DNA from: Caldisericota bacterium
GTDB taxonomy: Bacteria > Caldisericota > Caldisericia > JAAYUI01
Direction: 5' to 3'
Length of the DNA stretch: 43,960 nucleotides
NCBI GenBank assembly: GCA_029548865.1
Contig: JAKPMO010000022.1
Location: 1-43,960 of the forward strand
A program made the position numbers and the translations under genes. This document shows positions 31,790 through 43,960 of this stretch, one piece after another. The notes beneath the pieces were generated by a model. The model made no database searches. It was not told where the DNA came from and saw only the letters and a list, made by a program, of their open reading frames with translations. Position 1 is the first letter of the stretch. Every line of letters starts with the position of its first letter.

Positions 31790-33730
31790 ATGACAGACAC
31801 CAGACCTGATCCCAACGAGATACTGAAGAGGATTCTTGAAAAAGAAAAAGACAGCGAACAGGAAAAGAAAAAAGGCAAGCTGAAGGTTTTTCTTGGTCTT
31901 GCCGCAGGTGTCGGCAAAACCTACAGGATGCTCGCAAGAGCACAGATGCTCAAGGAGTCAGGCGTTGATGTTGTAATTGGCATTATAGAGACACATGGAA
32001 GGATGGAAACCAAAAAGCTTGCTGAAGGCATAGAAACTCTCCCCAGAAAAGAGATTGAGTATGGCGGGATCAAGCTGGAAGAGATGGACATTGATGCCGT
32101 CATAAAAAGAAAACCTGAACTCATCTTGGTGGATGAGCTCGCGCATACAAATGCACCTGGTTCGAGACATAACAAACGCTACCTGGATGTTGTGGAACTC
32201 CTAGAAAATGGGATTGATGTTTATACCACACTGAATGTCCAGCACATAGAATCTTTCAACGACATAGTTTTCCAGATCACAGGAGTAAGGGTCAAGGAAA
32301 CGGTCCCTGATGAGATACTTGAGAGAGCACACCATCCGGATGGCATCGAAGTGGTTGATTTACCACCTGAAGAGCTGATACAAAGGCTTAAAGACGGCAA
32401 AGTCTATGTTCCAGAAAAATCCAAGCAGGCCATTGAAAGGTTCTTTAGAAAAGGCAATCTTCTTGCTCTTCGAGAAATGGCTCTCAGATACACTGCCAGG
32501 CTAGTTGATGAAGACATCAAAACATACATGGAGCGGCATGATATTGTCGGGCCATGGTCGGCTGCACCCAGACTGCTGGTTTGTGTTTCGCCAAGCCCAA
32601 CATCTGCCAGGCTGATAAGACTTGCAAAGCAATTGGCCCCAGGTATTGATGCAGAATGGTATGCCATCCACGTTGAAGAGCGGAATGCTCCTGAGCTTAC
32701 AAGTGATGCTTCAGAAACGCTTACATCAAACCTGAGGCTTGCTGAGGAACTGGGTGGGGAAGTTGTCACAACAGTTGGTTCAAATATAGCTGATGAAGTC
32801 ATCCGATTTGCAAGGGAAAAGAACATCATCATCATTTTGATTGGCTACGGTCCAAGACAAAAATTCAGCTTCACCAGAAAAAACCTGGTCGATGAGGTAG
32901 TCAGAAAATCAGGCAATATCCATGTTCTGGTTGTAACGGACAGTGAAGCGGCGCCTGTCAAATCAACTGTTGCTAATAAGCTTACTTTTTCTTATAAACA
33001 CACTTTTTATTCATTGTTGACACTATTTGTGTATGCAACTATTTTCTTCTTCCTAGGCAAGTGGCTGAACTATGCCAATATAGTGATGCTCATGACTTTG
33101 CCGATCATTTTCTCGGCCATTGTCTGGGGGCGTGTTGCAGGGATCATCAATTCCATCGTAGGAATGGTGCTGATTGATTTGTTTTTTATACCACCGCTAT
33201 TTCAATTCACCATTGAAGACATTAATCTTCTCCCATCATTGCTGGTATACCTTGTGGTTGGATTAACAGCATCTTTCTTGGCCGAGATGGTCAGATGGCA
33301 AGGCAAGATAGCCAGGCAACGCGAGATTTTCATTGAATCTCTATACAATTTGAGCCGGGAATTGCTTGTGTTTACAAACCCAAAAGACATAACAAAAAAA
33401 GCAGTGTCTGAAATGGACAGAGTTTTTGAGTGCAAAACAGTTTTTTTTGAAGGTGTTGGTGATGAGCTGGCCATTCTCTCAAAATCAGACGAGCTTGAAA
33501 TTCACGACAAAGATAAGGTCATTGCCACGTGGTCGCTTACACACGGGGGAAAAACCGGCAAATACACCGACACTCTCCCCCATGCCGAATTTACATTTGT
33601 CCCAATCAATATTGGCTCTAAAACAAAGTATGTTGCAGGGTTTAAGTTCAATCAGAAATTGACTCCAGAACAATCAAAACTTCTTGATTCATTCATAAAC
33701 GTTATTGCTACTTCGCTTTCGATCTTTTAG
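31790..33730 (+). CDS. kdpD: KdpD sensor lacking the histidine kinase module (KdpD-N, Usp, TM/DUF4118, GAF only)
   Basis: GVGKTY, VDELAHTN, LNVQHIES, LALREMALR, Usp-like LLVCVSPSP, FFIPP TM region, GAF-like end; stop at 646 aa with no H-box or ATPase boxes. Confidence 0.9.
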   Translation: MTDTRPDPNEILKRILEKEKDSEQEKKKGKLKVFLGLAAGVGKTYRMLARAQMLKESGVDVVIGIIETHGRMETKKLAEGIETLPRKEIEYGGIKLEEMDIDAVIKRKPELILVDELAHTNAPGSRHNKRYLDVVELLENGIDVYTTLNVQHIESFNDIVFQITGVRVKETVPDEILERAHHPDGIEVVDLPPEELIQRLKDGKVYVPEKSKQAIERFFRKGNLLALREMALRYTARLVDEDIKTYMERHDIVGPWSAAPRLLVCVSPSPTSARLIRLAKQLAPGIDAEWYAIHVEERNAPELTSDASETLTSNLRLAEELGGEVVTTVGSNIADEVIRFAREKNIIIILIGYGPRQKFSFTRKNLVDEVVRKSGNIHVLVVTDSEAAPVKSTVANKLTFSYKHTFYSLLTLFVYATIFFFLGKWLNYANIVMLMTLPIIFSAIVWGRVAGIINSIVGMVLIDLFFIPPLFQFTIEDINLLPSLLVYLVVGLTASFLAEMVRWQGKIARQREIFIESLYNLSRELLVFTNPKDITKKAVSEMDRVFECKTVFFEGVGDELAILSKSDELEIHDKDKVIATWSLTHGGKTGKYTDTLPHAEFTFVPINIGSKTKYVAGFKFNQKLTPEQSKLLDSFINVIATSLSIF

Positions 33731-33741
33731 GATTTATTAAA

Positions 33742-34803
33742 TTATCTTTTGACAAGCATCGTCTTGTCAAAAGATCTCCAGTAGAGCTCTCGTTGGAAGA
33801 TTCCACAGAACTGTCTTAAAGGAACCATGGGAATTCCCTTTACTGTTTCATATGGGGCCACGACCCACTGCTGTTTTTTCCCATCAATCTGGAATTCTTT
33901 TTTGCCAAGCGTAAATTTGACTTCCAGCCACTCTTTTTCAATGAACCTTCTAAATGTCCAGAGTTTTGTTTTTTCATCATAGGAAGTGGTATTTGAGCTT
34001 GTGAGGTTTTCGAGGACCCATTTGCCAGGAACCATCGTTGTTCCATTCCTTGTTTCCACCTTTGCAGGAAGGGCTTTCTTTTCTCCATTTACAAACGTAT
34101 CTCGTTCCCCAATCTTCATCCATATATAGCCACCCCAGGAAGCCACAGGGAAATTATACAGCGCTGGTGCGCATTCATTTCTAACATCCGGATTGACAGC
34201 TTCCATTTTGTAAAGGCTCAGTTTTTCCCCATCATATTTCCTAATGTCGACATTGAAATTTCCATCAGCAAAGAAACAGGAGCCGGGAGGCAGTTTTTCT
34301 TTGCAATAGCACGGTCCCATATCAAAGTTCATTAGCGAACACTCCTGGTCTCTATTGTGGTAAAGCCTCTTCATGTAGTAGAATCCGTTATCTTTATTCG
34401 ATATGACCATGCCTAAATACAGTCCTCTGTCATATGATGGGCCCAAAAATTTGCAGCTGAATCTGCCATCGAAACATTTTCTGGCCTCTTCAAAAAAATT
34501 CTTGGCCGAGGGATCAAGCTTGACTGGATTGCCTTTGGCATCTTTTGCTGGTATGGCGAAAGTTTTACCATCTTTGGTGATTTCTGTGATTTTGTAGAAA
34601 GTAAAACCATTCTCACCGTATTCGACAAGCGGCATCTCCTTGTCTAGAACATAAACATCACCTTTTTGATCATACGATTTTAACACCATTATTTTGAATG
34701 GCTGCATTTTTTGCTTGGTTGTTTCTGTTCGTGCGCAAGGGATACATAAGCCTGTGATAATAATTAACGCCACCAAGATGCTTATTTTAGAAGATTGCTT
34801 CAT
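33742..34803 (-). CDS. Secreted protein with C-terminal stalk (Cu_amine_oxidN1-like) domain; family A, copy 2
   Basis: Signal peptide; VPLRQFC C-terminal motif; shares motifs with 41505-42632; GGAGG RBS. Confidence 0.8.
   Translation of the reverse strand: MKQSSKISILVALIIITGLCIPCARTETTKQKMQPFKIMVLKSYDQKGDVYVLDKEMPLVEYGENGFTFYKITEITKDGKTFAIPAKDAKGNPVKLDPSAKNFFEEARKCFDGRFSCKFLGPSYDRGLYLGMVISNKDNGFYYMKRLYHNRDQECSLMNFDMGPCYCKEKLPPGSCFFADGNFNVDIRKYDGEKLSLYKMEAVNPDVRNECAPALYNFPVASWGGYIWMKIGERDTFVNGEKKALPAKVETRNGTTMVPGKWVLENLTSSNTTSYDEKTKLWTFRRFIEKEWLEVKFTLGKKEFQIDGKKQQWVVAPYETVKGIPMVPLRQFCGIFQRELYWRSFDKTMLVKR
33744..33775. repeat. Perfect 13-bp inverted repeat with 6-nt loop
   Basis: ATCTTTTGACAAG-CATCGT-CTTGTCAAAAGAT. 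Confidence 0.9.
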
Positions 34804-34847
34804 ACTTCCTCCCTGAATTTATTATTGAGGATCCAAAAAACTGCTTG

Positions 34848-36113
34848 TCACTCAAAGCCATAAAGGTATTTGTCGTCAGCAACAAGCACTAGATCGCTTA
34901 CAGATAATACGACCCTAGCACCCTCACCAAGGTTATTTTTCTTTTTGCTGATTTGCCATTTTTTGTCTCCAGTAATGGGGGAGATGGCAAAAATGTTGTC
35001 CTTGTCTTCCTGCCAGTATTCCCTCTGGTTTAATGGAAAGGTTTCATCAACAACATTCAACTTGTTTTCCAGCTTGACAATCGAGTCATTCTTGTAAAGG
35101 CACAACAAATAGTACGATCCGCCTGCTTTGAATTCAAAAGGGAAATCGGTCCTTCTGTCAAGGAACGATCCAATGGTATTTCCAATCTTTGCTTGATATT
35201 CTTTCTCGACCAGCCCACTTACTTGGTTAATCCTAACTATTTTTGTACCGTTTTCAGTAACAATATAAAGCCTCTCCTGGTCAACTTCAAAAGAAAAATA
35301 ATCCTCTATATTCTTGAAAGCCAATTCTGATATTTTGAGGGTGTCGAGGTTGATCCTGTACAATTTGTGGCCTTCATTATTGAAAGGTGAGGTCAACACC
35401 CATAAATATCTATCCGTATTAATAACACCACTTATCACCTGCCCGTCAAATGATAACATCCACTTTGGCAATCCAGACCAGCAATTGAGGCACAAAAGTG
35501 ATCTGGAATTAATGCTGACAAAGATGTTGTTCTTGTATCCAATATTGTACAGGTGGGCTTCTTTTATCCTGTACCCCCAGAAAGTTTCATTGCTATACAA
35601 ATCCCAATAGGCGAGGTTTCCATTTTCCCTGAACCCAAAAACATTTTCACGCACATCAAAAATGATTCCCCCAAGTGTATTTAGTTTTTCGGATTTAGGG
35701 AGAAGCGCTGTTTTCCCTGTTTCTGTTTCAATCACAAGTGTCATTGGTGAATATTTTATGCTTAACAACTTGTTTTCTGGGGAAAACATGTCCCTTTTAG
35801 ATGTGTTTTTTAGGTCTGATGTCATTCTTCTGTAAGGCAATTCTTTCCACAGAAAAAGATCATATTCCTTGTTATCAGAAACTGACAATGGGACTGGAAA
35901 ATCCTTGATGGGTGCCATTTTGAAATCTTTTGCCGGCACGAGTAGTGATTTGTCCTCAAAATTGGCATCAGGAGTGATTGTGTGTTTTTCAATATTCTCC
36001 TTCATTTTGTTCATTATCCCAAGAGGGCCATTTCCCGAGCACCCCGAGATTGCAATGACCAGAAAAATCAGCAATAAAATGTGCAAATATTTTTTCATAT
36101 TGTCCTTTATCAT
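34848..36113 (-). CDS. Putative lipoprotein, beta-propeller-like; family C, copy 3
   Basis: AGGAGG RBS, lipobox ISGC, G...W repeats, C-terminal KKWQISK...LYGF. Confidence 0.75.
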   Translation of the reverse strand: MIKDNMKKYLHILLLIFLVIAISGCSGNGPLGIMNKMKENIEKHTITPDANFEDKSLLVPAKDFKMAPIKDFPVPLSVSDNKEYDLFLWKELPYRRMTSDLKNTSKRDMFSPENKLLSIKYSPMTLVIETETGKTALLPKSEKLNTLGGIIFDVRENVFGFRENGNLAYWDLYSNETFWGYRIKEAHLYNIGYKNNIFVSINSRSLLCLNCWSGLPKWMLSFDGQVISGVINTDRYLWVLTSPFNNEGHKLYRINLDTLKISELAFKNIEDYFSFEVDQERLYIVTENGTKIVRINQVSGLVEKEYQAKIGNTIGSFLDRRTDFPFEFKAGGSYYLLCLYKNDSIVKLENKLNVVDETFPLNQREYWQEDKDNIFAISPITGDKKWQISKKKNNLGEGARVVLSVSDLVLVADDKYLYGFE

Positions 36114-36123
36114 ATCGATCCTC

Positions 36124-37278
36124 CTAATCCCCATAACAAAAAATGAAATCACCAGAGAAAACAAAGAGTTTTCCAAAACCAATTCGAAGTTTGTCAGCAG
36201 GTTTGGGCAGGTTCATCCTATATACTTCTTCTCCAGTAAATCTGTTAATTTTGCTTATAGCTCCGGTGTGCGTATGACAACAATATAACCAATCGCCACA
36301 AACAACAAGTTTTCCATTAAAAGATGGCTTTTCTTTGAACCATAACGCTTTCCCATCCGGAGAATAGCAAGTGACCTTGTGTCCTATTGCATAATCAGAA
36401 ATATAGACATATCCATCGCTTGTAATGCAATATTCAATATTTCCTATTCTTTCAATTTTTGGATCCAGAAATGAACCATTGTCCAGCTTGACGCAACGAA
36501 GTATCGGTCCTTTATCGATGTAATATGCCTTGTCACCCTGTATTGTCACATACCAAGGTAAAACAGGAGGACCTTCATCAACTTCCTTCTCTTCATCAAC
36601 ATCCAAGTTCCTGTCCCATAACAAACTGCCATCTTTTGTCCTCAGGGCAATTACTTTATAGAGGGTCATATAGACACAAACACCATTAGATACTGATGAG
36701 ATTGTCCTGCAATTCCGGCCATCATAGTATGACCAGATAAATTTTTGTTCTGAAATGGAATAACATGATATTCCATCATAAGTTGAGATATACAATTTCC
36801 CATCTGAGGCAGTCATTGATTTATAACCATAAACTCTGCTTGGCAGAAACTCTTCCTGGATCAATTCACCACTGTCAGCATCAAGTATCTCCAGTTTTTG
36901 TTCATTGATTACATAGAAAATTTTTCCGTCTGCATAGCATAACTCCTCCCCCACCTGGTCTATTTTTAGACAATCTGTTTTCCAGAGAAGCTCTCCAGTC
37001 TCATAGCTAACACAAACGACGGAACGCTGCCGATTTTTATAGGCAAACATAAAAAGCTTGTTATCTGTAACCAATACGTCATTTTCCAAGTATCTCGATG
37101 AAACACCATAATCTGCTTTAAACTGCCATTCGAGCTTTAGCTCATTCGATTTTGGGGCAAAATAATGTATTGGGAGATCGAATGTATGTCCTGGCCCACC
37201 TCCATATTGGGTCCAGGGAGTGAGATAGGCTAAGATAAAACTAGAAAGTAGAAGACCCACCAGCTTTACTGCGCCCAA
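36124..37278 (-). CDS. Secreted PQQ-binding-like (BamB-like) beta-propeller protein; family B, copy 2
   Basis: AGGAGG RBS with TTG start; WTQYGGGPGHT, ETGELLWK, KDGSLLWD, DGKALW repeats. Confidence 0.8.
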   Translation of the reverse strand: MGAVKLVGLLLSSFILAYLTPWTQYGGGPGHTFDLPIHYFAPKSNELKLEWQFKADYGVSSRYLENDVLVTDNKLFMFAYKNRQRSVVCVSYETGELLWKTDCLKIDQVGEELCYADGKIFYVINEQKLEILDADSGELIQEEFLPSRVYGYKSMTASDGKLYISTYDGISCYSISEQKFIWSYYDGRNCRTISSVSNGVCVYMTLYKVIALRTKDGSLLWDRNLDVDEEKEVDEGPPVLPWYVTIQGDKAYYIDKGPILRCVKLDNGSFLDPKIERIGNIEYCITSDGYVYISDYAIGHKVTCYSPDGKALWFKEKPSFNGKLVVCGDWLYCCHTHTGAISKINRFTGEEVYRMNLPKPADKLRIGFGKLFVFSGDFIFCYGD

Positions 37279-37389
37279 TTTTCCTCCTACCCCACAAATA
37301 AGCTTGCTTACCAGTTACTCTTCTGGAGCAACGCCATTATGGCATATCACAAGCTGTCTGTATATGGCCACATAAACAAGGAAAGTTTC

Positions 37390-38607
37390 TCACGGCCTGA
37401 AACCGTAGACAAACTTGTCATCCCTAAGAACAACACCATGCTCGTCAGATAACATAATTGTGTAGTCTTCCCCAATCCCCTTTTTGTCGATTGACCATGT
37501 GTGCTTGAAGGTGCATGGATCAACTCCAATGATCTTTTTGCCATCATCAAAATAGTAGTCATTCTTAAGCTCTGTTATTGGATCATTGATACTGGTCACC
37601 TTACGAGACAAAAAATGGAAGACTTTTTGCCCGTCTTTTGTTTCAATAACCAGAATATCATCTGGACCAATTCCAGTGATATCATCAGTGCTGGAGATGA
37701 CTCCTGACAAGTCAGAAACCATCTTTTTTTCGAATGTTTCCTCGTTAACAGCATAAATCTTCAAATCATTGTCAATATAGCAAAAAGAACCATTTATGAA
37801 GCCAAGGAGAAATACATCCTTGGATGCAAATACTTCCACAACGATATTCTTGTCTGGATCATATGCGTAAACATGTGTATAGGCAGCATATTCTCCATTA
37901 CTAAAATCAAAATACCGCATCCACAGACATTTGCTATTGCCACCTAGGCCTGATAGTATTCCTCTATAGTCCTGCTCACATACTATCCCCCAGGCGGGAG
38001 TACCATCATCAAGGTTGATCTTAGTGACGTCATTCCCAAATTCTTCCTGGACAAAAAGCTGGTTGTTCCAGATGAAGGTATATTGCCTGTCCAGGCCGAA
38101 TTTCCACAATACCTTTCCATTCTCCTTGTTTTCCCACATCCCGAGATAGTTTCCCCCGTCAACTCTCCCAACAGCAATCTTTCTATCTGCATCATAATAA
38201 TGCGCGCTTTCTCTTACTGAACTTTTTTTGCCATCTTTGGGTGATAGAAAGTACTCGGAAGAATCTCTTGAGCGAATTACCCAACCCTTAGGAGTAGATC
38301 TAACGTATCCGAGAAAATCGCCGCTAGATTTGTGCAGGTATTTCTGAATGTCGTCCCTCCAGAATTCTTTTAGTTCAACGCTTGATTTGATGTATGAACT
38401 TCCCCAGAAATTGTATTGGGAGTTCTTGTTGTCTGCATTTGTATAGATAACTTTTTTGAATTGCAGATCTGCTTCCACCAAACCATTGGGAGTTACCGCA
38501 TATGATTTGACATCTACAACGTCTTTTCTTGTAAGGTCGATGCCAGAATAACAGCCAGGGGAAAACACTATCAACAAAACTGCCAACAGACAACCAAATT
38601 TGTTCAT
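37390..38607 (-). CDS. Putative lipoprotein, beta-propeller-like; family C, copy 2
   Basis: MNKFGCLLAVLLIVFSPGC lipoprotein-type signal; NGKVLWK, DDGTPAW; C-terminal HTWSIDK...VYGF. Confidence 0.75.
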   Translation of the reverse strand: MNKFGCLLAVLLIVFSPGCYSGIDLTRKDVVDVKSYAVTPNGLVEADLQFKKVIYTNADNKNSQYNFWGSSYIKSSVELKEFWRDDIQKYLHKSSGDFLGYVRSTPKGWVIRSRDSSEYFLSPKDGKKSSVRESAHYYDADRKIAVGRVDGGNYLGMWENKENGKVLWKFGLDRQYTFIWNNQLFVQEEFGNDVTKINLDDGTPAWGIVCEQDYRGILSGLGGNSKCLWMRYFDFSNGEYAAYTHVYAYDPDKNIVVEVFASKDVFLLGFINGSFCYIDNDLKIYAVNEETFEKKMVSDLSGVISSTDDITGIGPDDILVIETKDGQKVFHFLSRKVTSINDPITELKNDYYFDDGKKIIGVDPCTFKHTWSIDKKGIGEDYTIMLSDEHGVVLRDDKFVYGFRP

Positions 38608-38634
38608 ATCATTTGTCTCCCTAAAATATGCCAC

Positions 38635-39942
38635 TCAAGGTGGCCCGAAGGCGATGACTTCATCACGTGTCGCAACAAGAACACCTCGCCAGTCGCACTC
38701 CAGAACGTCGTATGACTCGCCTTTTTCCAACCCAAGATCAGCTTTGTCAATCCACCAGTATTGTTCGCCAGTACTAAAATCAAACCAAGATATTTTCTTT
38801 TTTGAATAAACTATTCCATAGTGTTTATTGATTTGCCAGCCTTTTTTTGATGACCATATAGAATCAGTATACCCATCTATTGGGATTGGGTTTTTGGGCT
38901 CCTTGAGGTTGAAGATAAAATTGCCATTTTTTGATGTCACGCTGAGAAAGGCCACATTTGGATCTTCGACCAATTCTAGAACGCCACCTTTTATGTATTC
39001 ATCAATTTTAAAGGTTTTTGAGGGCACACAAGTTTCAGGGTCTATCTCTGTCAAAACTTTGCCTTCCTCTGATATCACGTATAGCCTATCACCATCAATA
39101 AAAAAGGTATTGAAATTTTTGAAATCAACCTTCATTATTTCAAGCGTTTCCGGATTTATTCTATAGAGGTAATATTGTGTTGGTTCGAACCATTCATCTC
39201 CATCTATAAATATGTATTTGTTCGTGAAAGCGTAACGACCAAAGAATAGACCTTTTCTGCCTCTCTTAAGCTCCCAGTCCGGAATCCCAGTCCAAGCATT
39301 AACCTTCAATAAAATTGAATCTAAATTTCCTCTATAATAAACAGAGCTGTCTTTTGAAGAAACCCATAAATCTAATTCTTCCAAAGGCAACCTCCAATAC
39401 TCCTCGTTAAGACCAAGGCTCACCGATACTGCATATCTTTGAAAATAAAGCAAGTTCCGATCCTCAGCAAAAGCCACTCCATTTTTCTCATCCAACAGAT
39501 AATATTCGAACCTGGCTCCAATCTTCTTGCCAGTTGCAGGGTCATAAAGACCAGAGTCAGAGCCATTTTGTATTTGCCACCCATCCTCAAAATTGTCTGA
39601 AGTGACTCCATAGCCAGAATAATCCTTATTCTTGAGGTTGTTCTTGCTCCACATCTTCTTTAGTTGGCCCTTATAAAGAAGGGGCTTTGGTTCATAGGGT
39701 TCAAGTGGTGTGTTTCTTGGTTTACCAATTTTTGTTGGGATTGGCATTTCCTCTAGAGGGACAAGCCTCATGTCATTGGTTGGCACAAGAAGGGAGCCTT
39801 TTGGAAGGTTTGTAGCAGTTTTTATCTCATATTTTGGATGGTTTTTGTAGACTTCTTCCCTGGATGGCGAGCAACCTGCACAAAAAACTAACAATAAAAT
39901 GGCTGCAAACAATTTCTGCATGGATCTTCTTCTCCCAAACAT
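38635..39942 (-). CDS. Putative lipoprotein, beta-propeller-like; family C, copy 1
   Basis: Lipobox-like CAGC; WTGIPDW, LYRINPET; C-terminal QYWWIDK...VIAFG (start 39942 or 39921). Confidence 0.75.
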   Translation of the reverse strand: MFGRRRSMQKLFAAILLLVFCAGCSPSREEVYKNHPKYEIKTATNLPKGSLLVPTNDMRLVPLEEMPIPTKIGKPRNTPLEPYEPKPLLYKGQLKKMWSKNNLKNKDYSGYGVTSDNFEDGWQIQNGSDSGLYDPATGKKIGARFEYYLLDEKNGVAFAEDRNLLYFQRYAVSVSLGLNEEYWRLPLEELDLWVSSKDSSVYYRGNLDSILLKVNAWTGIPDWELKRGRKGLFFGRYAFTNKYIFIDGDEWFEPTQYYLYRINPETLEIMKVDFKNFNTFFIDGDRLYVISEEGKVLTEIDPETCVPSKTFKIDEYIKGGVLELVEDPNVAFLSVTSKNGNFIFNLKEPKNPIPIDGYTDSIWSSKKGWQINKHYGIVYSKKKISWFDFSTGEQYWWIDKADLGLEKGESYDVLECDWRGVLVATRDEVIAFGPP

Positions 39943-40086
39943 ATCTCCTCCTGGACAGTGTTTTTGATTTCAATCAGTCCCCATCATAAGGTTTTGGGAA
40001 GTCCAAATCAATTACATAATAGCACCTTTATACCTTAAATTGGCTGTAAAAATTACCTCTCTATATGTACCTAGACCAGTGTCACA

Positions 40087-41286
40087 TCATTTTTGGCCAT
40101 ACTCCATCAGATAGTAGCAAGAAACAGTGTCATTGTTCTGGAAACATATCACACCGTTTCTGTAGGATACACCGCCAATCTGGTTGGGCACCTGGTAGCT
40201 CCAAACCTTGCTTCCATCCTTAATGTCGTAGGCGGTAATGTATGAGGCATCCTTGTAGGCTTCATAAACAATAGGGTTCTTTTCGAATGCGATGAAATCC
40301 ATGTATTGTGATTCTTTTACGTCTATGTCTTGCAGGACCTCTCCATTGCTTGCTTTGAGGCACATGATCCTGTAGTTATCTGCTTTTTCAAAACCGTTTC
40401 GATATACAACAAAGACAACGTTTCCCTTATACTGAACGCCATTTGTTATAGGAATATATCTCAAATCTTTTTCCCATATCATCTTAACATTCCCACCCTG
40501 ATTCTCGGCACAGACTAAATGGCTTCCCTTGCTGTTTTGATAACTCAAGACGATATTGTCTCCCATAAAAAATGCATTGTTAATTGAGTTGTTTATGTCC
40601 CAAGAAAGTGCGAACTCCCACATTGTTTTTCCAGTTGTTTTGTCGATCATGAATACAGAATCATTCCTTTTGTCTTTCTCTCCAAGGCACAAGACATATT
40701 TGTCATTTTCATCAGAAAACCTCAGTGAGTGTGAGCCATCAACGCTATACTTCTGGATAAGGGTTTGTGTCGCTGCCGTGACATCAAATGTGAAGATGTT
40801 CTTGCCAATGCCTATCCACAACTTGTTGTAGCTTATCTCGATACCGTTATATTGGTCATCTGGGCTTTCTTTGTATTGCTTCAGGTTGGCATAAGTGTAT
40901 TCACGTCCGTCAAATTCTGATACGTCCGTGTAGTAAACCTTATCACCCTCCAATGTATAGACATCGTTTTCAAAGGTGGCGAAATCATAAATAGTATTCT
41001 TCAGATTTGTCGGGTACTGCCAGTTCTCATTTCCATTATCGATATTGAGAGAATAAAGAAGGTGTAGGTACGGACAGCAATATGGTCCAAGGTCTCTGTA
41101 CAACAGTATGCTCGAATCCATGATGATTGGCCTGATATAGGTTGCATCAAGGTCCATGTTCCTCTCCCAGAGCCTCACAATGCTTGGCATTTTTGCTTCG
41201 GTTTTTATTGATGTATATGGGAAGATATTGGCTAAAATGACCAGAGCCACAATAAGTATTTTTTTAATTTGTGTTTTTACCATCAC
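40087..41286 (-). CDS. Secreted PQQ-binding-like beta-propeller protein; family B, copy 1
   Basis: GGAGG RBS, signal peptide; DNGNENWQ, TTGKTMWE, SNGEVL, KDGSKVWS repeats. Confidence 0.8.
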   Translation of the reverse strand: MMVKTQIKKILIVALVILANIFPYTSIKTEAKMPSIVRLWERNMDLDATYIRPIIMDSSILLYRDLGPYCCPYLHLLYSLNIDNGNENWQYPTNLKNTIYDFATFENDVYTLEGDKVYYTDVSEFDGREYTYANLKQYKESPDDQYNGIEISYNKLWIGIGKNIFTFDVTAATQTLIQKYSVDGSHSLRFSDENDKYVLCLGEKDKRNDSVFMIDKTTGKTMWEFALSWDINNSINNAFFMGDNIVLSYQNSKGSHLVCAENQGGNVKMIWEKDLRYIPITNGVQYKGNVVFVVYRNGFEKADNYRIMCLKASNGEVLQDIDVKESQYMDFIAFEKNPIVYEAYKDASYITAYDIKDGSKVWSYQVPNQIGGVSYRNGVICFQNNDTVSCYYLMEYGQK

Positions 41287-41361
41287 CGCTTTTACCTCCT
41301 CCGACTCTCAATAAATACATCTTACACACATTTACAAGCGCTGTCCATTTTTTGTAATGAC

Positions 41362-41396
41362 AGCCACCTTTCTGGTATATAAACTAGAAGGTGGCT
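41362..41396. repeat. Intergenic imperfect inverted repeat
   Basis: AGCCACCTTTCTGG-TATATAAA-CTAGAAGGTGGCT. Confidence 0.75.
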
Positions 41397-41504
41397 ACGG
41401 TGGAGGAGGGGCATACTGGTGGGGGTAGTGGACCCTTGAGGATTCAAGTTTCTCTTTGGAGGGGAGGGAACTTTTTAAAATTGATTCCCCCCACTTGCTT
41501 GTTG

Positions 41505-42632
41505 TCATTCATTCATTGGGGCGAAGAATCTGGCAACTAGAGCTGTGTTGTCAGTTGTTCTGTAGTGACAAGGTGCTTTTATAAATTTGCACAAATCACG
41601 CAATGGAACATAGAAAATATCATCTTTTTCAAATGGTGCAAATTCCAGTTCTTTTCTTTCTCCATTTACAATGGCATAATTTTTACCTAGCTCAAATGTT
41701 GCTGTTATATATTCAACAGGGTGACTGGAGTAAAACTTATACAACCTGTGAAATGTGTGGGTTTTCATGTCACCAGATGTTGGAGTAAGCATAAATCCTG
41801 CCAATGAATACATATCAACCGCAGGTTGATTGTTTTCACTCAAAATCAACAATGGATGTGGTATTTCCTCATATTCTTTCCAAACACACACCTTGTTGGA
41901 AAAAGTTTTCATCCAGATGTAGCCCTCATAATACCCACCCTTATATGGGATTTCATCCATTTTTTCTCCATATGGTATTTCATGCACATAATAAAAGTCA
42001 GGATTTATCGCTTCTGTTTTTATTGTTTCAAAATCTTTCCCCGTGTATTTCAATATCTGAAAGTTAAAATCATTATCAAAAGCGAAAATGGAACTCTTTG
42101 GCAAAGATAAACCTTGTGACTCTTCCTTAAGATTTGTTTTGGTACTTATCCAGTTTGTGTACTTATCTTTTTTATTATTAATGACCTTTGATGTATAAAA
42201 ACTATAGTTCCAACCTTCATCTTTTTTTATTCCAACAAGTAATTTCTTAATTAGCCCATTTTTCTGGTTTTGCTCAATCGAGGCCAATATTGTAGGGTTA
42301 AGTGTTAACATTAGCTTTGATGCAAACTCTTGATCATCTGTAAATAATTGCACCTGTTTGCTATCAGAATCCAGCTTTGGAAATAAATATTCGCCAAAAT
42401 CATCAGACTGCTTCTTTATGTATTCATAAAAAAACAGTTTACCATCTTTATACTCCATCACTTTGTACTGCGCCTCAAAATTGACTTCTTTCTTTGTATC
42501 AGACAATGACATAGCTGCAACAATCTTCAAATCAGGCATCTTTATTGGATCACTTTCAGCCATACTTTGCGGGCTATTGCATGCAAACAAACAAATTATT
42601 ACAAACAAAATTATTTTATTATAGTATTTCAT
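41505..42632 (-). CDS. Secreted or lipo-protein with C-terminal stalk domain, directly downstream of the Rhs-like gene; family A, copy 1 (immunity-gene position)
   Basis: GAGGAGG RBS, MKYYNKIILFVIICLFAC signal, C-terminal GKNYAIVNGE...APF...YVPLRDL. Confidence 0.8.
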   Translation of the reverse strand: MKYYNKIILFVIICLFACNSPQSMAESDPIKMPDLKIVAAMSLSDTKKEVNFEAQYKVMEYKDGKLFFYEYIKKQSDDFGEYLFPKLDSDSKQVQLFTDDQEFASKLMLTLNPTILASIEQNQKNGLIKKLLVGIKKDEGWNYSFYTSKVINNKKDKYTNWISTKTNLKEESQGLSLPKSSIFAFDNDFNFQILKYTGKDFETIKTEAINPDFYYVHEIPYGEKMDEIPYKGGYYEGYIWMKTFSNKVCVWKEYEEIPHPLLILSENNQPAVDMYSLAGFMLTPTSGDMKTHTFHRLYKFYSSHPVEYITATFELGKNYAIVNGERKELEFAPFEKDDIFYVPLRDLCKFIKAPCHYRTTDNTALVARFFAPMNE

Positions 42633-42646
42633 TTTGCCTCCTCGAA

Positions 42647-43960
42647 CTACCAACTTGCCAAATGATCTATGTCCCATTTTAAGCTTTTTTCATCCCATAA
42701 ATTATAGTTTATCTCTTCACTCTTACCAAATCCACGTATAATTACTATCTTACCACTGTCAGATTTAGTTTTCATAAATTCGTGTAGATTTCCTCGCATT
42801 TTTCCTCCAGAATAAAACCTATATACCATAGTGCCAACTAAATTTCTTTCGACAATGTTAACCTCCCCATTCTCCCCTTGATACTTTTTTGGTGCATCAT
42901 CATTACCAAATTCAGCGCATCTCCCTTCTTTAACATAAGTACCGTCTTTATCTACAAACACACCGACCCACATCCCATCTGATCTCACACACATTCCAAC
43001 AGAACCTGACGTTTTAAAGTGTGCTTCATTGAAAAAATTTATTTCTGAGTCCTTGGAGCCAATGCTTGAACATATGTTTTTCCATGATTTTGCCATTGCT
43101 TTTCCGGCTTCTGGCGAGTAGGTCCAATTGTCTGCAAACAAATTTATTGTGCCGGTTCTTTCTCCATTTGAGTTAGTTTCAAAGATATAAACTTCGTCGT
43201 CCTTAGTACAACATGCTGTAATATTGCCATTGGAATCACGAACTACCCATTTATATTGTTTACCATCATTTTTTTTATCTTTGTCATCTAAAATATCATT
43301 CATCTCTTCAATCATTTCTGCAAAAGTGTCAAGAATCCCCTTCATTGGGAGAAGTATTGGCATCTCACTGACTTTATGTATGGAGCCCTCGTCAGAGACA
43401 ATCTGACCATCCCTGAGGTCTTCCATGAACTTCTTTCTTTCTTCGTATTCCTTCCAGGTCTCACCACCATTACCATCAAAGGTGAATCCTAAGTTCTCAC
43501 TGTTACGTTTGAGGATATCACCACCATCTTCAGCACTACCATTGGTACAAATAATACCATTGATGTTCTTTTCTCCAACATCCTTGGCACCAACAAGCTC
43601 TGCATCTGGATTGGAGAAGTCTAGGCTTGGTGGGCCAGATTGTCTGCCAGAGTGGGAGATGCCATCAGATGGTCCTGCAGGGGGAGCAAAGGAGCCAGGT
43701 TCACCACCAGAGGAGGAGCCAGCTGTGGTGGCAGAGGTGATGGAGTGGGAGAGTAGCTGGTCTTCAGGGAGGGAGGAGGTGGACATAGAGTTGATGGTGG
43801 AGATGGAGGTGGGGTTAGGCATGGCTGGTGAGCCTGTTCCTTGGAGGAGGGTGCCTGTCTGTGGGTTGTAGTAGCCTGAGGAGAAGTAGAGGTTAGTTTC
43901 TGTATCAAGGATGGTCTGTGATGCTCCCATGAAGGTGAAGGGGTTTGGTATGGAGTCAGG
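42647..43960 (-). CDS. Rhs-like protein, 3' part (degenerate Rhs-associated core, Ser/Pro/Gly linker, variable C-terminal domain); runs off window end
   Basis: Frame open to 43960: PDSIPNPFTFMGASQTILDTETNLYFSSGYYNPQTGTLL, resembling the Rhs core NPFxYxG...DxETGLYY...YYxPxxG. Confidence 0.72.
   Translation of the reverse strand, partial: PDSIPNPFTFMGASQTILDTETNLYFSSGYYNPQTGTLLQGTGSPAMPNPTSISTINSMSTSSLPEDQLLSHSITSATTAGSSSGGEPGSFAPPAGPSDGISHSGRQSGPPSLDFSNPDAELVGAKDVGEKNINGIICTNGSAEDGGDILKRNSENLGFTFDGNGGETWKEYEERKKFMEDLRDGQIVSDEGSIHKVSEMPILLPMKGILDTFAEMIEEMNDILDDKDKKNDGKQYKWVVRDSNGNITACCTKDDEVYIFETNSNGERTGTINLFADNWTYSPEAGKAMAKSWKNICSSIGSKDSEINFFNEAHFKTSGSVGMCVRSDGMWVGVFVDKDGTYVKEGRCAEFGNDDAPKKYQGENGEVNIVERNLVGTMVYRFYSGGKMRGNLHEFMKTKSDSGKIVIIRGFGKSEEINYNLWDEKSLKWDIDHLASW

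Follow-up and report, generated by a model that had tools for sequence, protein, structure and literature searches.

A Rhs locus of Caldisericia that has lost its autoprotease residues, and its array of genes for large, predicted-exported proteins

How can a Rhs protein act once the autoprotease residues of its core are lost, and what are the large, predicted-exported proteins encoded behind it for? This question is raised by one end of a 43,960-nucleotide stretch of DNA (the window), which is the whole of contig C25 of G000, a 1.8-Mb, 93%-complete genome of a Caldisericia bacterium from sludge. There, on the minus strand from 43960 to 33742 (window coordinates are those of the forward strand), an open reading frame (ORF) of 437 codons, open at its 5' end, is followed by seven genes of 353-435 aa. 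A previous sequence-only reading had described a Rhs-like 3' end with seven co-oriented genes for exported proteins and had proposed an extracytoplasmic poly-immunity or receptor array, or a variable surface-display system; all eight ORFs were confirmed. The locus works like a Rhs/WapA toxin-immunity locus, yet it lacks the autoprotease residues, and this loss is its most unusual feature. Comparison of sequences leads us to prefer, with a probability of roughly 0.55, a toxin that stays tethered and acts on the envelope, with immunity provided at the surface.

In each of the eight aligned cores of the lineage, Gly replaces the Arg of ARYYD, the Asp that follows RF is missing along with about 14 residues, and the core terminates at NP(T/S)S or NQTS, DPxG being absent in 8/8. 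They were compared with nine canonical cores, of which five belong to the family of G000; all nine kept the catalytic Arg and both Asp motifs, whereas these were missing in each of the 35 top homologues (24 distinct spacer-plus-motif strings, some being the same loci). Among lower-scoring Rhs proteins, a DPxG-like motif was present in 19 of 30 by a strict pattern. At the border to the variable part, N-[PQ]-[TSVA]-[ST] is found in 35/35 homologues, the repeats ahead of the core hold an insertion of 58-92 residues, and TIGR03696 did not match the non-canonical core in G000. The same loss spans three genera; a core profile searched against 84 genomes of the class gave scores above 80 bits in the family only, and the tip protein matched 8 of the 10 other genomes of the family and none of 30 from four other families. 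The sequence-only reading had been right to call the gene atypical, but had missed the loss of the autoprotease residues.

In RhsA, the substitutions D1324N or D1346N block cleavage and killing, and freeing of the toxin by the aspartyl protease of the core has been put forward as universal among Rhs effectors (PMC8765631). In teneurins this region is an uncut plug with the C-terminus outside (PMC8765631); a bacterial teneurin-like protein (TLP) retains both Asp and the Arg, and mammalian teneurins are without the motif (PMC13018210). Judged from its core, the tip encoded here is likely not cut and thus tethered. Behind the core runs a flexible linker of 110-170 residues, the first 110 of which are 66% S, P, G, T, A, E, D and Q. 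We abandoned the idea of a tip that exceeds the room in the shell, since tips on canonical cores of the family are equally long (306-473 aa).

The tip might be freed by another cut, most plausibly by Asn-driven self-cleavage at NP(T/S)S or through a surface protease acting in the linker, and then act on the envelope: the border motif kept in all 35 homologues resembles the NPTH autocleavage site of FlhB/YscU (PMC3189125), and killing by RhsA requires release (PMC8765631). We consider such a cut possible, though unlikely. Canonical cores have a structural NNP with which this NP aligns, so that no new function is required to explain why it is conserved; NQTS stands in one homologue, and the long linker suits threading out of the shell.

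G000, G001, G002 and G003 are four genomes of one genus. In G000, the RBS-supported starts of the array genes (RBS, ribosome-binding site) give proteins of 375, 398, 435, 405, 384, 421 and 353 aa, six genes having a GGAG-type RBS and C2 a weaker one (agggag). In all seven proteins a hydrophobic stretch lies at the N-terminus (best 11-residue mean 2.6-3.8) and no membrane helix comes after it, their export being predicted from a simple hydropathy scan, not SignalP. Sizes, RBS-led starts and predicted export signals are as first described. Promoter and terminator scans were at chance level (30 versus 29.1 and 11 versus 7.8), no long repeats were found inside the array, and RNA runs contain 17-23% of the sequence words. 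The features, in order of transcription, are as follows.

43805-43960, minus strand: 3' half of a non-canonical Rhs-associated core, ending in NPTS, without catalytic Arg or DPxG; it continues the core broken off at G000:C18:70668.
43361-43804, minus strand: low-complexity Ser/Pro/Gly/acidic linker plus charged helix, mosaic-shared with other tips.
42647-43360, minus strand: type-I tip of about 237 aa, with a conserved beta/alpha module (about 115 aa) and a hypervariable C-terminal part.
41505-42632, minus strand: A1, 375 aa, with signal peptide, A domain and stalk domain; the tip's cognate partner by position, starting 14 bases after the tip stop.
41402-41470, minus strand: Rhs-body remnant of 70 bases, 94% identical to C18:70132-70201.
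40087-41286, minus strand: B1, PQQ-type propeller with signal peptide; orphan, cognate tip not found.
38635-39942, minus strand: C1, lipoprotein propeller; its ortholog lies directly behind a hydrophobic tip in G003.
37390-38607, minus strand: C2, lipoprotein propeller; orphan.
36124-37278, minus strand: B2, PQQ-type propeller with signal peptide and TTG start; orphan, present in G003 and not in the G001 array.
34848-36113, minus strand: C3, lipoprotein propeller; orphan, the final array gene in G001 and G003.
33742-34803, minus strand: A2, 353 aa, family A; its ortholog lies directly behind a different type-I tip in G002.

Does the tip have a fixed relation to the gene behind it? Of 31 cores, the four that had no gene behind them or whose tip was truncated or frameshifted were set aside, which left 20 non-canonical and 7 canonical pairs, and tips were typed after removal of linkers and stalks into type I (7), type II (7) and small groups. 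A non-circular A profile, built from 16 stand-alone A paralogs, matched the partners of 8/8 type-I tips (E 6e-11 or better) and 0/20 partners of other tips, the eight being the original seven plus G046, found later in another family and absent from both starting alignments. The partners of all seven type-II tips fell in the propeller cluster. Tip similarity correlated with partner similarity over 20 pairs (rho 0.41), a value reached by 0 of 10,000 free and 82 of 10,000 within-genome shuffles, and this mirror was significant within type II (p 0.008). Among the loci compared, tip type predicts partner family, the co-variation that the sequence-only reading had named as a check. In two G004 cassettes (L032:10058-12570 and L116:1977-4899), the tip is followed by a gene homologous to the tip itself (E 1e-8 and 4e-12); a decoy or homotypic immunity is possible for these tip-like partners.

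The array differs in each genome of the genus, with the order tip-A1-B1-C1-C2-B2-C3-A2 in G000, full Rhs-P516-orphan-P500-B1-C1-C2-C3 in G001, tip-A2 in G002 and tip-C1-B2-C3 in G003; an array invariant among strains, named beforehand as evidence against a polymorphic system, was not what we found. G009:C1 holds five complete cassettes plus a stub, and G007:C16 three plus a stub. Two of the six array orphans have a cognate tip elsewhere: the A2 ortholog of G002 (88% identical) starts 19 bases after a different type-I tip, and the C1 ortholog of G003 (78-80%) starts 44 bases after a tip with a hydrophobic helix, an adjacency that could be a deletion junction because the 5' end of G003 C1 differs. 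For B1, B2, C2 and C3, no cognate tip was found elsewhere. The 70-base piece of Rhs body between A1 and B1 is likely the scar of a deleted orphan module. The ratio of nonsynonymous to synonymous substitution rates (dN/dS) was 0.09-0.32 for array genes (9 comparisons) versus 0.01-0.09 for flanking genes (10 comparisons) and 0.09 for the Rhs body. Array genes, which contain local 50-residue blocks at 42-60% identity, are under purifying selection.

The YD repeats and secretion signal sought upstream of the window by the sequence-only reading are both present at the edge of contig C18 of G000, where a 1,552-aa open ORF has a signal peptide (read by eye), DUF6531 (E 8e-10) and 20 RHS repeat stretches (PF05593, E 2e-104); no NHL domain was matched on this body. 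The ORF stops about 50 codons short of the first codons of the window ORF, and body and window tip were joined by synteny with G001, where a single 116.6-kb contig holds the two sides together with matching flanking genes, not by a single G000 contig. In other assemblies, the window tip occurs as a 583-aa module that has a start of its own (P0050, judged by eye to be the same), and cluster members of this module lie on contigs of up to 117.7 kb, about 3 kb longer than C18 plus C25. Because of this own start and the extra sequence, the window ORF, which does hold the core and tip of a Rhs gene but is 5'-open, is most likely an orphan cassette rather than the main gene; the main tip and its partner would then be missing in the gap between C18 and C25. 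Contigs from three of the four sequencing runs fork at 43659-43746 into other sequence, one loose end resembling the G001 main tip by eye, and other tips on the same core also occur in P0048, P0049 and P0013; contig depth at the core is a hint, not a copy number. Intact full-length Rhs genes of 2,029-2,078 aa are present in G001, G009 and L042. Since neither BamA (PF01103) nor a type VI secretion (T6SS) sheath gene (PF05943) was matched in the 93%-complete G000, we infer WapA-like export by Sec.

Pairwise and Pfam matches bear out the three array families: A1 and A2 are 25% identical (E 1e-17), C1 and C3 24% (E 2e-20), C2 and C3 22% (E 1e-8), and B1 and B2 give just E 0.005 pairwise, yet both match PQQ_2 above the cut-off. 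One correction concerns families B and C. Family C, too, is a BamB-like PQQ-type propeller, its best natural match in the PDB being BamB (E 6e-8); the lipobox Cys is present in 15/15 aligned members, and a C profile built without the window genes matched C1-C3 at E 1e-24 or better and B1 and B2 just at 1e-8 to 1e-10. By these comparisons, B and C share a PQQ-type propeller fold, of which family C forms the lipoprotein branch. C lipoproteins are also arrayed, up to four in G001, behind the tips of a second Rhs locus (G000:C7:1-4567 and C24:3-2437; L084, L085, L090) with a canonical DPxG core. The C24 tip has an E-S...GLMQ pattern reminiscent of lytic transglycosylases, which is a lead only, as Pfam SLT, PDB sequences and nine homologues did not support it.

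Stalk domains like that of family A anchor proteins to the wall. The domain is listed among predicted wall-binding modules (bioRxiv 10.64898/2026.09.23.753664). PF07833 matched A2 at E 9e-12 and A1 weakly (E 3e-4), and the A1 model, with a predicted local distance difference test score (pLDDT) of 86, matched an amine-oxidase stalk (Z 9.8, root-mean-square deviation 2.4, 74 residues); the fold search gave no match beyond the stalk, A1 having been searched whole, so that its N-domain was weakly tested. Family A has 8 full-length matches among 5.8 billion proteins. Four A genes lie in tandem at G000:C5:32236-37139 before valS, with no Rhs gene nearby, and are kept in G002; one of them shares its 3' end with A1 (75 bases, 84%).

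In a set of 1.84 billion representatives, about a dozen credible relatives of the type-I tip were found, the other matches being repeat noise, and PDB sequences gave no match. Its model has a mean pLDDT of 72, with 75-98 per block in the conserved module, and fold searches (PDB, VIA wide and viral) gave no match (Foldseek E 0.036 or worse, best Z 3.7), nor did the ESM Atlas give a usable one. Homology of this tip to the A domain, suggested by a similar strand order, was not supported (hhalign 1.2% and 1.8%), nor was a relation between tip types I and II (0.3%). Type-I domains also occur in secreted proteins at L167:3219-4589 (G080) and L157:6612-7571 (G008). The G080 protein joins an A-like N-terminal stretch (hhalign 49%) to a type-I tip domain; a natural fusion of tip and partner is possible.

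How would a tethered, envelope-acting toxin with surface immunity work? The Rhs protein would be exported by Sec as for WapA, and its tip, staying uncut, would leave the shell on the flexible linker, as in animal teneurins. Core-tip-partner cassettes, the repetition and exchange of which are seen in sequence, would be swapped by recombination in the identical core. The partner, held by its stalk domain or lipid anchor, would bind its own tip outside the membrane; as the partners are predicted to be exported, action outside the cytoplasm is to be expected, for which the L,D-peptidase and Imm65 cases (PMC3482391) are precedents, as is Tsi1 for exported propeller immunity (PMC3391265). The tip would be used against the envelope of neighbouring kin, candidate targets being the wall, the S-layer or the membrane's outer face. 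A1 would neutralise the tip ahead of it, while B1, C1, C2, B2, C3 and A2 would have been retained after loss of their tips and may protect against other strains; orphan immunity genes in arrays of contact-dependent inhibition (CDI)/Rhs systems are expressed and protective (PMC3150448). The array is thus best read as one cognate and six orphan putative surface immunity genes. The earlier poly-immunity or receptor proposal gains from tip-partner co-variation and array variation, immunity and envelope action being our interpretation.

Several observations weigh against this reading. A RhsA tip left uncut is not lethal (PMC8765631). About 15 tips were scanned and none had a meaningful E-value to a Pfam or PHROG family, nor did any match a toxin fold, and the type-I tips, with no invariant column in 18 rows, lack an invariant set of residues that looks catalytic. 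Both secreted type-I-domain proteins stand alone, without Rhs or A gene; A genes likewise stand alone (the four in tandem on C5, one on C22 and two in the complete genome G010), and no type-I tip was found in G010. G000 has 33 propeller and 78 stalk ORFs, and therefore the array folds are everyday surface scaffolds of this genome. The pairing counts include kin genomes, which are not independent, and one of the eight type-I pairs, that of G046, lies on a 2-kb contig and is perhaps mis-binned; the mirror within type I was not significant (rho 0.35, p 0.13). Since C lipoproteins stand behind at least four unrelated tip types, pairing is not one-to-one, and the dN/dS of the array genes remains below 1.

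Might the locus not kill at all? It could be a non-lethal identity or adhesion system, with the tip as strain tag and the anchored A, B and C proteins as receptors for matching kin in flocs, which would parallel teneurins in a bacterium, a reading that stays alive because the autoprotease residues were lost, as in animal teneurins. The lack of a toxin fold among the tips, partners that are large surface scaffolds, the homology of partner and tip in the two G004 pairs and the G080 protein with its A-like stretch and type-I domain are all consistent with it. However, strict tip-then-partner order, orphan cassettes and kept partners are the pattern of CDI/Rhs toxins (PMC3150448), tip loss with partner retention suits defence better than mutual recognition, and the same C family stands behind canonical, cleavable Rhs proteins, so that we regard recognition without killing as improbable. 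Far less credible is a decaying or domesticated Rhs gene next to a hotspot into which generic genes for surface proteins insert, tips and partners being functionally unpaired, which would fit the abundance of propeller and stalk genes, A genes without tips, B1 and B2 without known cognate tip and the coming and going of the kdp operon beside the array, but conflicts with the pairing of 8/8 versus 0/20, the intact full-length genes, the low dN/dS of the body and the identical core loss across three genera.

With the tethered toxin as the preferred reading, it is tempting to speculate further that this lineage independently made the step of the animal teneurins, in which the autoprotease was disarmed and tips of new fold were displayed outside to be read by wall- or lipid-anchored receptors, as a code of strain identity that works by contact and may bind kin or tell them apart without delivery of a cytoplasmic toxin; we hold this tentative idea to be unlikely. 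A family-wide natural loss of the autoprotease site, with tips still being swapped and partners still being gathered, points to a second release route or to Rhs action without release. Such a locus can serve as a living model of how cleaved YD toxins of bacteria gave way to uncleaved teneurins. At least two tip families and one partner domain without a fold match also come from it, together with an initial look at antagonism or recognition among the Caldisericia of sludge and digesters.

Other loci of the lineage deserve mention. L118:3167-10381 and L119:3474-10733 encode 2,400-aa Rhs proteins in which, read by eye, the C-terminus runs on beyond a helical domain into a region resembling a propeller and an end resembling a stalk; anchoring of the YD shell by its C-terminus is suggested by this layout. 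The partner of the full-length 2,078-aa non-canonical Rhs protein, at L042:11540-12241, is a stalk domain fused to a region that by eye resembles a phospholipase-D-family domain. Just upstream of Rhs cassettes in G006, L028:3-16663 holds a radical-SAM-like gene and then repeated cysteine-rich ORFs with a shared leader, each preceding a large exported protein, and is possibly a second polymorphic peptide-partner array. Beside the window array, a KdpD that ends after 646 aa is encoded at 31790-33730 (plus strand), lacking a histidine-kinase part by Pfam and equal in length in G001 and G003; no second KdpD-like ORF was found in G000, and the kdp operon is absent at the array-adjacent site in G002.

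Bacillus WapA belongs to the WapA/Rhs polymorphic toxins of monoderms. Our literature search, made without most subscription papers, found no paper on the present locus, nothing on Rhs or stalk-domain proteins in Caldiserica/Caldisericia and, for uncleaved Rhs, matched PMC13018210 alone. Compared with the WapA of Streptococcus suis (PMC12704120), the present locus shares signal peptide, DUF6531, YD shell, variable C-terminus, downstream partner and truncated orphan cassettes, whereas WapA retains DPxG cleavage sites and the core here is without catalytic Arg and both Asp motifs; in addition, the tip here follows a long linker, and each of the partners is a large protein with predicted export. 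With T6SS Rhs effectors and CDI/Rhs arrays it has in common the conserved core as exchange point, orphan tip-immunity modules and kept immunity genes (PMC8765631, PMC3150448), but no T6SS sheath gene was found, DPxG-x18-DPxG is absent and none of the listed toxin families is matched by the tips. Loss of the cleavage motif from the core is shared with animal teneurins; these have a fixed C-terminus and no partner array. Bacterial TLPs are likewise secreted and polymorphic with a partner gene behind, but in the one studied the motif is kept, the protein is cut and its tip, of about 15 kDa, is hidden (PMC13018210). Immunity outside the cytoplasm, a propeller scaffold and tandem divergent paralogs find their likeness in Tsi1 (a partial propeller, PMC3391265), in the lipoprotein Imm65, the only lipoprotein immunity family in a 2012 survey (PMC3482391), and in the strings of tsaI/esaG paralogs (PMC9484751); in contrast to these, the array described here would use complete propellers of BamB-like type and a stalk-anchored fold that is new, at 350-720 aa.

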